From: Naegleria gruberi
Taxonomy: Eukaryota
Strand: one strand, 5' to 3'
NCBI GenBank assembly: GCA_000004985.1
Contig: GG739276.1
DNA: 2,233 bases
Shown here in pieces: positions 123-1,134 of this stretch. The number at the start of each line of letters is the position of its first letter. Within the stretch, counting starts at the first letter, position 1. Both the position numbers and the translations under genes were made by a program. The notes under the pieces were generated by a model. That model did no database searches and was not told where the DNA came from. It saw only the letters and a program-made list of their open reading frames with translations.

Positions 123-255
123 TCGGGTGTGGTATAGTGGTAGCATTCCAGACTGTCACTCTGGCGACCCGGGTTCAATTTGTTTTGTTAGTGTGTGAGT
201 TAGTTGAATGGTATCGGTCATTCCTTATTTGGAAATTTCATTCCCGGTACCCATG
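123..255 (+). tRNA. tRNA-Asp(GTC)-like gene, interrupted. The 5' 58 nt (123-180) are contiguous through the T-loop. The 3' T-stem strand plus acceptor 3' strand plus discriminator (243-255, CCCGG TACCCAT G) is displaced by a 62-nt insert (181-242) located between T-loop and T-stem. Probable pseudogene or tRNA-derived repeat unit (unit A).
   Basis: Read directly. Acceptor 5' strand tcgggtg (123-129). T8 G9 (130-131). D arm GTAT-AGTGGTA-GCAT (132-146) with an A-box-like TGGTATAGTGG. Anticodon stem CCAGA/TCTGG (148-152 / 160-164) with loop CTGTCAC, giving anticodon GTC = Asp. Variable region CGAC. T-stem 5' strand CCGGG (169-173). T-loop TTCAATT (174-180). The expected CCCGG does not follow the loop; it appears at 243-247, followed by TACCCAT. 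TACCCAT pairs with 5 of the 7 acceptor positions (mismatches at pairs 1 and 2). The stretch GACCCGGGTTC resembles plant-type cytosolic tRNA-Asp. Confidence 0.55.
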
Positions 256-262
256 GTATGAA
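231..262 (+). repeat. Conserved 32-nt 3' module, copy A: ggaaatttcattcccggtacccatggtatgaa
   Basis: 31 of 32 positions identical to the copy at 580-611. Contains the tRNA-like T-stem/acceptor 3' strand (CCCGG TACCCAT). Flanking TTTCAT/ATGAA inverted repeat. Embedded GGTACC and CCATGG palindromes. Confidence 0.6.
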
Positions 263-268
263 CGAGAG

Positions 269-272
269 TTTT
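269..272 (+). terminator. Short T4 run 14 nt after the tRNA-like 3' end of unit A; weak candidate pol III terminator
   Basis: gagagTTTTag. Four T only, in an AT-rich context, so weak. Confidence 0.2.
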
Positions 273-332
273 AGTTGTTAATCATTTCTCGAGTGGTTTG
301 GATGAAGTTACAGTTATGAATAATTATCAAGG

Positions 333-428
333 AATTGGCGTCACGGTAGTACATTAATAATGTGTTATTATTATATGTTAATTTGGCGTCACGGTGATTA
401 CTATGTGTTTTTAATAATTTAATATTAT
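333..428 (+). repeat. Two-copy tandem duplication with a period of 48 bp, sharing the core (A)ATT(T)GGCGTCACGGT
   Basis: aattggcgtcacggt at 333-347 and atttggcgtcacggt at 381-395 (14 of 15 identical). The downstream parts are similar but diverged (taataatgtgtt versus tactatgtgttt). GGCGTCACGG is the most GC-rich block in an otherwise AT-rich spacer. Confidence 0.5.
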
Positions 429-490
429 GACAACAATCGGTGGTGGTATCTGTTCAACAACAAATCATCATCAATAATTAATTAACAATC

Positions 491-508
491 AGTGACCTGA
501 AGGTCACT
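491..508. repeat. Perfect hairpin/palindrome AGTGACC-tgaa-GGTCACT (7-bp stem, 4-nt loop)
   Basis: Read directly. Lies in the centre of unit B. Confidence 0.6.
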
Positions 509-579
509 ATTTAATAAACAGTAATTTAATAACCCAATTTATTATTGTTATTTGGTTGTTGAAGTCATCTTCCAAATTA

Positions 580-611
580 GGAAGTTTCATTCCCGGTACC
601 CATAGTATGAA
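580..611 (+). repeat. Conserved 32-nt 3' module, copy B: ggaagtttcattcccggtacccatagtatgaa
   Basis: Near-identical to 231-262. Differs by A/G at position 5 and G/A at position 25. Confidence 0.6.
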
Positions 612-650
612 ATCTTGAAAGTGTATACTGTGATTGAAAAACCACCAGTG

Positions 651-669
651 AATGACTGTAACAGTCATT
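651..669. repeat. 19-nt palindrome aatgactgt-a-acagtcatt (9-bp arms), related to the AGTGACC hairpins
   Basis: Read directly. Preceded by cagtga, so that AGTGA-ATGACTG parallels AGTGA-GTGACCT upstream of 689-706. Confidence 0.55.
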
Positions 670-688
670 AAACCAACAAACCAAAGTG

Positions 689-706
689 AGTGACCTTACG
701 GTCACT
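689..706. repeat. Perfect hairpin AGTGACC-ttac-GGTCACT, with the same 7-bp stem as 491-508
   Basis: Read directly. Stem identical to hairpin 491-508, loop differs. Preceded by AGTGAG. The accttacg of the loop/stem is repeated at 729-736. Confidence 0.6.
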
Positions 707-771
707 GATGGTGTTTAAACAAGTGATTAACCTTACGTTTAAATATTGGAACTATGAACACTTCTAAAAAA

Positions 772-802
772 GGAAATTCAATTCCCGGCACTCGAGTAAT
801 AA
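772..802 (+). repeat. Diverged copy C of the 3' module: ggaaattcaattcccggcactcgagtaataa
   Basis: Shares GGAAAT-TCA-TTCCCGG-yAC with copies A and B and carries a perfect T-loop-like TTCAATT. The 3' half has diverged (CACTCGAGTAATAA). Followed immediately by T-runs. Confidence 0.4.
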
Positions 803-824
803 TTTTACATTTTCTGCTTTTTTT
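803..824 (+). terminator. Cluster of T-runs (TTTT, TTTT, TTTTTTT) immediately downstream of module C; candidate pol III termination signal
   Basis: tttt 803-806, tttt 810-813, ttttttt 818-824. Pol III terminates at runs of 4 or more T on the coding strand. The placement directly after a tRNA-derived unit is suggestive. Confidence 0.35.
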
Positions 825-971
825 CGTATTATTTTATATTGATTTTTCATATTTATGTAGTATACATTGATGTCTTTTAAATTACTAATTTTCAATATTT
901 AATTATTTGTATTTCCAATTTTAGAAGCCTCGCCTTGTAGGTCATTTTTCACTAAAAAAATATCTAGTTGA

Positions 972-1082
972 AGAGCTGTGCCAAATCAGAATTTGACCTT
1001 ATTGTCAGTTCTGAGTTTCAATCCATTATCTAGATATTTGGAAAGCATTGGACAAGGTGCCTTTGGATCTGTTTTTAAATGT
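972..1082 (+). CDS. Stop-to-donor reading frame (no ATG; bounded upstream by the TGA at 969-971, so this is only the maximal open extent and the true exon start is unknown) encoding a protein-kinase glycine-rich loop (subdomain I): RAVPNQNLTLLSVLSFNPLSRYLESIGQGAFGSVFKC. Likely an exon fragment of a kinase gene or pseudogene.
   Basis: The frame with codons at positions congruent to 0 mod 3, for example tat-ttg-gaa at 1035-1043, is open from the stop at 969-971. IGQGAFGSVFK (1047-1079) matches the kinase consensus [LIV]GxGxFGxVxK, with an aromatic residue (Y) a few residues upstream as in many kinases. There is no ATG in frame. The frame is followed at 1083 by GTAATG (a 5' splice-donor-like site) and reaches a stop at 1131 if unspliced. 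Confidence 0.3.
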
Positions 1083-1134
1083 GTAATGCTCAATTATATC
1101 CACACCTCAATGCCCTCATTAATAATATTTTAAG
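1083..1134 (+). other. Candidate 52-nt intron (GTAATG...TTTTAAG) that would join the kinase-like exon in frame to ORF 1138-1374
   Basis: GT at 1083-1084 and AG at 1133-1134. Length 52, and 52 mod 3 = 1, which converts the frame of the upstream exon into the frame of the 1138-1374 ORF. Pyrimidine/T-rich 3' end. The AAG acceptor is atypical. Inference only. Confidence 0.2.

Follow-up and report, generated by a model that had tools for sequence, protein, structure and literature searches.

The 32-nt module near a split tRNA-Asp gene as tRNA-Asp-derived DNA, and possible origins of the block that interrupts the gene

Transposons of the Dada group (Kojima and Jurka 2013, PMC3706591; PMC8869645) insert into tRNA and snRNA genes, generate 6-7 bp duplications and have no terminal inverted repeats, and their subterminal sequences also occur in the target (PMC3706591). 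Within tRNA genes, the anticodon arm and the acceptor/D-arm boundary have been described as their sites (PMC8869645). In spirotrich ciliates, the birth of eliminated sequences (IESs) has been described by a model of duplication and decay of macronuclear-destined sequences (MDSs), put forward by Gao et al. 2015 as discussed in PMC9797194; the pointers at which such sequences are excised are typically 2-20 bp (PMC9797194).

The locus analysed here shares features with these and with other systems. In common with Dada it has an insertion in a tRNA gene, a direct repeat of the size of the 6-7 bp duplications, no terminal inverted repeats and target-like sequence inside the inserted DNA. With the spirotrich IESs born by MDS duplication it shares intact segments, decayed paralogues and a pointer-like joint, and with tRNA-derived SINEs a tRNA-like 5' part with pol III boxes, followed by unrelated sequence, and repeat copies in one orientation. 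The likeness to tRNA pseudogenes and repeats consists in the ordered succession of a D-arm/A-box-like stretch, the base of an anticodon stem, a heptamer, CCCGG and an acceptor-like strand, in degenerate units that adjoin a tRNA gene of the same kind. We found that a 32-nt module, which recurs in the window (the whole 2,233-nt stretch of DNA that was analysed), is the 3' third of tRNA-Asp(GTC)-derived DNA and does not constitute an independent signal. The locus is mostly ordinary tRNA-derived repeat DNA, and its odd feature is the presence of two intact gene halves.

A tRNA-Asp gene split in its T loop

The gene and the DNA that splits it comprise the following features:
123-180, plus strand: 5' part (first 58 nt) of a tRNA-Asp(GTC) of eukaryote type, read directly from the sequence
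123-129, plus strand: acceptor 5' strand, TCGGGTG
132-146, plus strand: D arm
148-164, plus strand: anticodon arm, with GTC at 155-157
165-168, plus strand: variable region
169-173, plus strand: T-stem 5' strand, CCGGG
174-180, plus strand: T loop, left copy of the 7-nt direct repeat TTCAATT and left junction of the block
181-776, plus strand: intervening block of 596 nt, which splits the gene and holds module copies 1 and 2
777-796, plus strand: authentic tRNA-Asp 3' end, inside the third module copy of the preliminary description (772-802)
777-783, plus strand: right TTCAATT, second copy of the T loop
784-788, plus strand: T-stem 3' strand, CCCGG
789-795, plus strand: acceptor 3' strand, CACTCGA
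796, plus strand: discriminator G (G73)
803-824, plus strand: T runs (TTTT, TTTT and TTTTTTT), 7-28 nt past the tRNA 3' end, in what we take to be the expected place of a pol III terminator

The heptamer TTCAATT occurs in the window at 174 and 777 only. The T loop of the 5' half is followed by TGTTTTGTTAG (TGTTTTG), without CCCGG and the acceptor strand, and TTTT (183-186) starts three bases past it. The missing partner strands lie beyond the block: 784-795 is the sole site in the window with 12 of 12 T-stem and acceptor-stem pairs to 123-180, and any site with such pairing arose in 44 of 1000 shuffled windows (4.4%). Because this pairing is unique and is followed by T runs, we identify copy 3 of the module as the real 3' end of a tRNA-Asp gene, which is interrupted in the T loop by 596 nt and has a direct repeat at both junctions. 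When 101-180 was joined to the sequence from 784 onward, ARAGORN recognised a 71-nt tRNA-Asp cloverleaf with an acceptor stem of 7/7 pairs; on joined constructs this program is too lenient as a test of specificity (129 of 4404 random tails were also called), and the strict stem-pairing count was used in its place. As it stands, the window contains no intact tRNA according to ARAGORN (0 genes), and Rfam gave neither a tRNA match, even at E<=10, nor a match to any other family. The interrupted gene is therefore one that tRNA finders miss. By the usual consensus for the pol III boxes, the 5' part contains an A-box-like sequence, TGGTATAGTGG, and a B-box-like one, GGGTTCAATT, which is without the final CC.

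The preliminary description had seen a likeness of the module to a tRNA 3' end, which we corroborate (T-loop heptamer, CCCGG, acceptor 3' strand). All three copies run in the same direction as the tRNA 5' part. What the preliminary description overlooked is that copy 3 is simply the genuine 3' end of a tRNA-Asp gene, the first 58 nt of which are found at 123-180.

A tRNA intron was rejected as an explanation of the block: the insert lies in the T loop and not at 37/38, is 596 nt long and contains three T runs. No group I or group II intron was found by Rfam in the window.

The 32-nt module and the units that contain it

The repeats within and beside the block are:
176-262, plus strand: U1, a putative tRNA-Asp-derived repeat unit of about 87 nt, the 3' 32 nt of which are copy 1 (231-262)
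535-611, plus strand: U2, by its alignment a paralogue of U1, about 80 nt, the 3' 32 nt of which are copy 2 (580-611)
221-234, plus strand: mini-hairpin TTCC-N6-GGAA, just upstream of the T-loop-like heptamer
570-583, plus strand: second TTCC-N6-GGAA site
762-775, plus strand: variant TTCT-N6-GGAA
762-776, plus strand: right end of the block, TTCTAAAAAAGGAAA, homologous to the 15 nt before the heptamer in copies 1 and 2
907-927, minus strand: inverted partial fourth copy of CTTCTAAAAAAGGAAATTCAA (761-781), without the CCCGG... part

The recurrence that had been noticed is real. Copies 1 and 2, both on the plus strand, are identical at 30 of 32 positions and differ by two transitions (A/G at 235 and G/A at 255), and the 32-mer, when written with two R positions, has exact matches at 231-262 and 580-611 and none in 200 shuffles. 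The diverged third copy (772-803) is equally genuine, with 22 of 32 matches overall and 17 of 20 in the core, compared with best values of 21 and 15 in 300 shuffled windows. All three copies exactly fit the 30-nt pattern TTCYNNNNNNGGAARTTYMATTCCCGGYAC. Ungapped identity of the first two reaches 42 nt (37/42 between 221-262 and 570-611), and copy 3 extended in the same way (762-803) matches them at 26-27 of 42 positions. The similarity extends past the mature tRNA end, as previously claimed: the approximately 15 nt upstream (TTCY-N6-GGAAR) are common to all three copies, and a 7-nt trailer is common to copies 1 and 2. The module's T-loop-like heptamer, TTTCATT, departs from what we take to be the usual T-loop pattern.

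The surroundings of copies 1 and 2, earlier called unrelated, deserve that name only downstream of GTATGAA, where the similarity ends. In the upstream direction, U1 and U2 are identical at 68 of 88 positions in a gapped alignment of 176-262 with 535-611 (score 80, compared with 24 ± 3.5 for shuffles), and we conclude from this alignment that they are paralogues. Copies 1 and 2 belong to these longer units within the DNA that splits the gene. The conservation of the module (30/32) exceeds that of the upstream flank (38 of 56 aligned columns; Fisher p=0.007), which could reflect constraint.

The motif TTCYN6GGAA occurs at four places (six strand matches), whereas 0.21 matches would be expected by chance. 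The mini-hairpin loop reads as inverted when copies 1 and 2 are compared, with 13 of 14 positions matching as reverse complement and 11 of 14 directly (the latter counted by eye). The base of the anticodon stem may survive, as a relic, in the mini-hairpin at 221-234. The inverted copy at 907-927 matches the reverse complement of 761-781 at 18 of 21 positions, a value reached in 2 of 500 shuffled windows; the similarity does not extend past these 21 nt. A similar heptamer, TACAAAT, adjoins it.

The module has no special folding. The hairpin ascribed to it in the preliminary description does not exceed shuffled sequence in stability (z +0.1 to +0.3); the fold z-scores of the three copies were +0.29, +0.10 and +0.41 as 32-mers, and -0.35, -0.37 and +0.47 as 42-43-mers. 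The TTTCAT/ATGAAA inverted repeat on which that hairpin was based is a perfect 6 bp in copy 2 only (copy 1 has 5 bp), and the palindrome CCATGG occurs in copy 1 only. A role in pol III termination or processing found nothing in its support, and T runs within the module are all shorter than four. As the preliminary description had also suggested, the module might still mark a recombination or integration hotspot or the terminus of a repeat element.

These observations bear on the possibility of a SINE-like family, derived from a tRNA and transcribed by pol III, in which the module would act as a hairpin for processing or termination, either as the conserved terminus or as an internal signal. 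The A- and B-box-like sequences of the tRNA-type head (123-180), a module better conserved than its flank and three copies oriented as the tRNA 5' part would all suit such a family, which we nevertheless consider very improbable. Apart from the ordinary stability of the hairpin, pol III would miss the modules, given the T runs at 269 and 408 and the TTTT after the T loop of the head. With the head, copy 3 forms the full pairing of an ordinary tRNA 3' end, which a SINE body would not do, and no other copies were found in the sequence sets searched. Neither an A-rich or LINE-like tail nor flanking duplications around U1 or U2 are present, and the homology of the units takes in the 5' flank of the gene, which argues for copying at the DNA level and not for retroposition. 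In contrast to tRNA-derived SINEs, a T run here comes right after the T loop, and the true tRNA 3' end lies 596 nt away.

The relationship of the units to the gene was examined upstream of the module as well. The upstream part of U1 (176-235) aligns, in the same order, with the 5' flank and body of the gene (score 31, reached by 22 of 2000 shuffles), with TGGTAT--CGGT--CATTCC opposite TGGTATAGTGGTAGCATTCC; for U2, 535-584 aligned with the flank and body at a score of 27 (19 of 2000 shuffles). This alignment in order (p ~0.01 for each unit) supports an origin from the tRNA gene. Tests of sub-segments of the units' 5' parts against the gene gave p values of 0.04-0.37, with mononucleotide shuffles of AT-rich sequence as the null. 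Taken together, the alignments weakly suggest that the 5' parts of the units also derive from the tRNA gene. Borderline tRNA-5'-like starts at 423-449 (p ~0.1) and on the minus strand at 1082-1126 (p 0.01-0.09) were not relied on. The locus differs from described tRNA pseudogenes and repeats in that a gene of otherwise intact appearance holds the relics in its T loop, between the two copies of a 7-nt direct repeat, and in that the 3' module is far better preserved than the remainder of each unit.

The modules could also be attachment-site repeats of a tyrosine-recombinase-type integrative element with the 3' part of tRNA-Asp as its integration site, since such integration classically leaves partial tRNA 3' ends repeated behind a tRNA 5' part. 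The heptamer-centred junctions can indeed be written as B-core-P' (174-180), P-core-B' (236-242, 585-591 and 777-783) and P-core-P' (104-110). Integrase-mediated insertion normally rebuilds a complete tRNA at the junction, but here the junction at the tRNA 5' part does not do so (TGTTTTG instead of CCCGG). With a tRNA of eukaryotic type, no recombinase gene in the window and segments of only 45-55 nt between the would-be sites, we find this explanation barely credible.

Other candidates were rejected from the sequence of the units and junctions: (i) an LTR or TRIM element (PMC10886601) with LTR-like units at 176-262 and 535-611, in which inspection revealed neither a polypurine tract nor TG...CA ends nor duplications of 4-6 bp, and (ii) Helitron and L1-type insertions, both ruled out from the junction sequences. 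The sequence TGGTATGAA after CCCA resembles a primer-binding site, yet it is kept after the second unit too.

The intervening block and its possible mobility

Besides the module copies, the block contains a 48-nt tandem duplication, several palindromes and T runs at 183-186, 269-272 and 408-412, and it folds better than shuffles (z=-3.25). Its ends, compared as inverted repeats, scored 15 versus 13 ± 2.4 in shuffles (p ~0.2), i.e. they have no significant terminal inverted repeats and no convincing subterminal ones. Likewise, approximately 10% of shuffles equalled the inverted match between the two ends of the upstream segments (45-55 nt) of U1 and U2. A MITE or another DNA transposon with terminal inverted repeats was rejected on the basis of the block-end comparison.

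The window is AT-rich and without long ORFs. Pfam applied to its ORFs returned Pkinase only (E=0.12, on a glycine-loop motif), and word-index protein searches and exact-ORF look-ups returned nothing. Exhaustive HMMER gave two marginal matches for the ORF at 50-271, the better of which (P0001) reached 27 bits per repeat in pairwise BLASTP and was treated as uninformative. Neither a transposase nor any other coding capacity was found in the window by the Pfam, ORF and protein searches, and there is no long TGA-free (ciliate code) frame in it.

The searches for other copies covered viral contigs, metagenomes, prokaryote genomes, phages and plasmids, in which no further copy of the module or the block was found; the evidence is that of a single locus. 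A 24-mer and two tRNA-derived patterns had 0 matches in viral contigs. The 19-mer core had six metagenome matches, all without the GGAAR and RGTATGAA flanks, and three matches in genomes of unrelated bacteria, which were taken as chance with their flanks uninspected. The whole window had no blastn match among phages and plasmids, and a literature search with sequence strings gave nothing relevant.

An exact 7-nt direct repeat at both junctions, in an otherwise intact RNA gene of multicopy type, also resembles a transposon target-site duplication. The block might then be one or more non-autonomous, Dada-like mobile elements that target the T loop of tRNA-Asp and duplicate 7 bp, with TTCY-N6-GGAAR as the right terminus and the internal modules as target-like sequence, left from earlier insertions or used for target recognition. 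The traits of Dada fit (PMC3706591), including the lack of significant terminal inverted repeats; the 21-mer of the right end recurs in inverted orientation at 907-927 beside TACAAAT, and the intact halves would be accounted for if an old element had inserted into a live gene. We regard this origin as doubtful, since the T loop is not among the Dada sites described in tRNA genes (PMC8869645), neither transposase nor other coding capacity is present, convincing subterminal inverted repeats are lacking, and the viral, metagenome, prokaryote, phage and plasmid sequences yielded no second copy. The left part of the block, moreover, resembles the flank and body of the tRNA gene, which is more natural for gene duplicates than for foreign DNA; unlike Dada, the block looks derived from the tRNA gene itself and is without transposase or related copy.

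It is unlikely that the locus represents an undescribed family of small mobile elements, specific for the T loop of tRNA-Asp and producing a 7-bp duplication, with the module as a target mimic for recognition. By analogy with the target-like subterminal sequences of Dada, such mimics could serve homology- or protein-guided recognition. If the same block were present in other tRNA-Asp genes, it would define a new class of T-loop-specific elements and possibly a tool for site-specific insertion.

The combination of an intact 5' part, decayed paralogous copies, an intact 3' part and a short direct repeat is also what the duplication-and-decay model predicts. The block would then be a germline-limited IES of a ciliate-like organism, born by local duplication of tRNA-Asp segments and decay of the redundant copies, and excised at a 7-nt pointer, the TTCAATT found at both junctions, to restore tRNA-Asp. 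This is the sole reading that explains the unequal decay by selection, and an AT-rich window without long ORFs, with isolated kinase-like motifs as possible short gene segments, would agree with it. However, nothing points to a ciliate source; the absence of a long TGA-free frame sets the window apart from spirotrich IESs, the ends lack the flanking TA of the Paramecium and Euplotes type, which is thereby excluded, the kinase-like motif has very little support (Pfam E=0.12), and the prior for a random window being germline ciliate DNA is low. We therefore judge it quite improbable. If the block were removed in development, it would illustrate neatly, and on a small scale, how duplication and decay can give rise to an IES in a non-coding RNA gene.

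A proposed origin by duplication and recombination of tRNA-Asp copies

The explanation that we consider best, with our confidence in it evenly divided, is that the locus consists of tRNA-Asp-derived relics joined by duplication and recombination of DNA at the T-loop heptamer, and that the split gene is now a pseudogene. Copies 1 and 2 would be the best-preserved ends of two degenerate tRNA-Asp-derived units of approximately 80-87 nt, and a third such unit would have been joined to the intact 3' end by way of the T-loop heptamer. We infer that recombination among tRNA-Asp copies, with breakpoints at this heptamer and at the similar heptamer TTTCATT (104-110) in the gene's own 5' flank, may have brought relic units, which had diverged beforehand, as a block between the halves of an intact gene. 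The identity of copies 1 and 2 would come from common descent, possibly helped by gene conversion, and not from a hairpin or terminator function. The interrupted gene would be a pseudogene, in which pol III would stop at the TTTT at 183-186.

The intact halves beside decayed duplicates are the one feature that calls for explanation, and they count against this origin: the gene halves look intact, whereas the units between them differ from the tRNA gene at many positions (copy 3, which carries the 3' end of the gene, agrees with copies 1 and 2 at only 26-27 of 42), and duplication in place with neutral decay does not predict this. The unequal decay requires either the recent arrival of an old block or selection on the halves. 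The target-site-like repeat at the two junctions also stands against duplication and recombination.

As it stands, the locus has little significance, the “conserved module” being reclassified as relic DNA of tRNA-Asp. The observation made in the preliminary description was confirmed, while its interpretation was supported in part.

A region of local duplication would fit the recurrence of motifs of the block outside it, namely the inverted copy at 907-927 and palindromes at 994-1007, where the palindrome family of the block is found again.

Repeated module and its surroundings

The window is AT-rich (G+C of about 33%) and contains no long ORF, no intact tRNA recognized by ARAGORN and no match to Rfam families. 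The repeated module within it is real. The 32-mer of the preliminary description has exact matches at 231-262 and 580-611 (copies 1 and 2) and none in 200 shuffles. The third copy (772-803) agrees at 22 of 32 positions, 17 of 20 in the core, and so exceeds the maxima of 21 and 15 reached by 300 shuffled windows in a sliding-identity test. The pattern TTCYNNNNNNGGAARTTYMATTCCCGGYAC fits all three copies without mismatch. Ungapped extension with a repeat finder lengthened the first two copies to 42 nt (221-262 versus 570-611, 37/42), with 762-803 as the third member of this family (26/42).

Copies 1 and 2 had been thought to lie in unrelated surroundings, but the DNA upstream of them is related: gapped alignment of 176-262 with 535-611 gave 68/88 identities and a score of 80, against 24 +/- 3.5 for shuffles. 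Viral, metagenome, prokaryote-genome, phage and plasmid collections yielded no further copies of the module, which says little about the source genome, because the tRNA concerned is of eukaryotic type.

A tRNA-Asp gene divided in its T loop

Positions 123-180 correspond to the 5' 58 nt of a tRNA-Asp of eukaryote type. The elements of the two gene halves are as follows.

Elements of the divided tRNA-Asp gene
123-129: acceptor strand TCGGGTG
within 123-180: D arm with GTATAGTGGTA
within 123-180: anticodon arm CCAGA-CTGTCAC-TCTGG
within 123-180: T-stem strand CCGGG
end of 123-180: T loop TTCAATT
777-796: TTCAATT-CCCGG-CACTCGA-G, a second T loop, the matching 3' T-stem strand, acceptor strand and G discriminator

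The T loop ending at 180 is followed by TGTTTTG instead of the second T-stem strand. The acceptor strand in 777-796 pairs at 7/7 positions with 123-129, including one G-T pair, and T runs are present downstream, at 803-824. When 101-180 was joined to 784 onward, ARAGORN returned a tRNA-Asp(GTC) cloverleaf, in which A12:C23 of the D stem is the sole mismatch in otherwise intact-looking gene halves. This join test is lenient (129 of 4404 arbitrary tails were called as well), and stem pairs were therefore counted directly. This count, made without requiring an adjacent exact T loop, identified 784-795 as the only 12/12-pair site on both strands of the window; such a site arose anywhere in 44 of 1000 shuffled windows. 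The motif TTCAATT occurs in the window at 174 and 777 only.

The preliminary description held that the module is not a residual tRNA 3' end. We conclude from the unique pairing and the second T loop that the diverged third copy is the true 3' end of a tRNA-Asp gene. Within its T loop this gene is broken by an insert of 596 nt (181-776, hereafter the block), with a 7-nt direct repeat on either side. Copies 1 and 2 pair at 10/12 positions, as do 14 other sites in the window, and it is therefore homology to copy 3, not pairing, that connects them with the tRNA. An integrase attachment site is unlikely, because the junction beside the tRNA 5' part leaves the tRNA not rebuilt; the position and length of the insert, together with its T runs, likewise make a tRNA intron unlikely.

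Units within the block

Two paralogous units, U1 (176-262) and U2 (535-611), terminate on their 3' side in copies 1 and 2, respectively, and each consists of three parts.

Parts of U1 and U2
part 1: AT-rich upstream stretch, 45-55 nt
part 2: TTCC-N6-GGAA mini-hairpin
part 3: T-loop-like heptamer TTTCATT, CCCGG, acceptor-like TACCCAT, R, GTATGAA

The upstream parts align, with order kept, to the 5' flank and 5' body of the tRNA gene (score 31 for U1, attained by 22 of 2000 shuffles; 27 for U2, attained by 19 of 2000), and the alignment includes TGGTAT--CGGT--CATTCC against TGGTATAGTGGTAGCATTCC. Sub-segments gave weaker results (p 0.04-0.37), so that derivation of these parts from the gene is suggestive only. 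If it is true, each unit would represent the entire gene, together with some 5' flank, in shortened and degenerate form, and the TTCC...GGAA hairpin would be a remnant of the anticodon-stem base; the inclusion of the flank would imply copying at the DNA level. For the most part, tRNA-Asp-derived DNA accounts for the repeat; the more interesting feature is the gene, interrupted but otherwise intact.

The hairpin and pol III roles suggested for the module found no support. Its proposed hairpin shows no special structure relative to shuffles (z of +0.29, +0.10 and +0.41 for copies 1-3; -0.35, -0.37 and +0.47 with the upstream hairpin added), and the TTTCAT/ATGAAA inverted repeat is complete in copy 2 and in no other copy. 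A T run terminates pol III. The modules contain none, whereas TTTT occurs upstream at 183-186, three bases past the T loop, with more T runs at 269 and 408; transcription started at the tRNA promoter would therefore stop short of the modules, which speaks against a pol III signal. As for selection or recent copying as a unit, conservation is indeed higher in the module (30/32 identical) than in the upstream part aligned with it (38/56, p=0.007), but with two copies the causes are not separable, and constraint, gene conversion or an indel-prone AT-rich flank are alike compatible with this difference.

Another observation concerns the hairpin loop, which reads as inverted between copies 1 and 2 (TTATTT versus AAATTA): 221-234 and 570-583 match at 13/14 positions as reverse complements (repeat finder) and at 11/14 directly (manual count), as though the loop had been turned round.

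Origin of the interrupted gene and further repeats

The split gene with relic units in its gap is the firm, descriptive part of this analysis; how it arose we infer. In copy 3, the 15 nt upstream of the T loop (TTCTAAAAAAGGAAA) resemble the units rather than the gene, so that the right junction has the appearance of a unit joined at the heptamer to the intact gene end. A similar heptamer, TTTCATT, is present in the 5' flank of the gene (104-110), followed by TATTATGTGT, which resembles the DNA after two other heptamers, those at 174-180 and 533-539. The rearrangements could therefore plausibly have used such short heptamer homology as their substrate. Our preferred explanation is that tRNA-Asp copies recombined or were duplicated and that the junctions formed at the heptamer, because the gap is made up of tRNA-Asp-like DNA oriented as in the gene and because its motifs (an inverted 21-mer at 907-927 and a palindrome family) recur beyond the gene.

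The main difficulty is unequal decay: the gene halves look intact, while the units between them are much diverged from the gene, copy 3, with the 3' end of the gene, sharing only 26-27 of 42 positions with copies 1 and 2. Either an old block arrived recently, or the halves have been maintained. Two rival explanations address this. A mobile element targeting the T loop with a 7-bp duplication seems unlikely. The nearest described system, Dada transposons, generates 6-7 bp duplications, lacks terminal inverted repeats, inserts inside tRNA/snRNA genes and carries target-like subterminal sequence (PMC3706591); however, known Dada tRNA sites lie elsewhere than the T loop (PMC8869645), and the block has neither significant inverted termini nor coding capacity. 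A sequence removed during development from a ciliate-type germline genome is more doubtful still. Duplication of a gene segment followed by decay between short pointers is a described route of IES birth (PMC9797194) and the pattern fits very well, but the window bears no sign of such a source organism.

Several smaller features deserve mention. The inverted partial copy at 907-927 (-) matches, at 18/21 positions, the 21-nt stretch running from the end of the block into the T loop (attained by 2 of 500 shuffles); it is followed by TACAAAT, similar to the T-loop heptamer, and the tRNA 3' end with its T runs is enclosed between this copy and 761-781. The segment 280-295 (AATCATTTCTCGAGTG) is complementary at 14/16 positions to 789-804 (acceptor 3' strand and trailer), and could be one more small relic in inverted orientation, or a chance match around the CTCGAG palindrome. 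The palindrome family AGTGACC-N4-GGTCACT (491-508, 689-706, 728-741 and 994-1007) has two good and two decayed members, one lying outside the block; a separate palindrome, AATGACTGtaaCAGTCATT, occupies 651-669, and longer inverted arms are found at 453-477/539-563 and 470-508/689-727. These palindromes and arms account for the more stable folding of the block relative to shuffles (z -3.3 and -4.4). A 48-nt tandem duplication spans 335-423 (335-382 and 383-423, 38/48), each copy beginning with TTGGCGTCACGGT, loosely like TCTGGCGACCCGGG at 160-173 of the tRNA. Weak likeness to the gene 5' flank plus its first 13-40 nt was seen at 423-449 (TATTATGacaacAATCGGTGGTGGTAT) and, inverted, at 1082-1126 (-), with borderline p values of ~0.1 and 0.01-0.09.

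Two kinase-like motifs, GQGAFGSVFKC (1050-1082, +3 frame) and ADFGS (1168-1182, +1 frame), are separated by ~30 codons, belong to different frames and have no ORF around them (Pfam Pkinase only at E=0.12); no homologue was found, and they could be what is left of a kinase gene that decayed or broke up, or could be due to chance. Finally, a spurious ORF at 50-271 (+2 frame), overlapping the tRNA 5' part and U1, marginally matches P0001, a 250-aa metagenomic protein with 60-aa tandem repeats (accession prefix SRR6187551), with a HMMER E of 1.4e-4 and only 27 bits per repeat in pairwise BLASTP.
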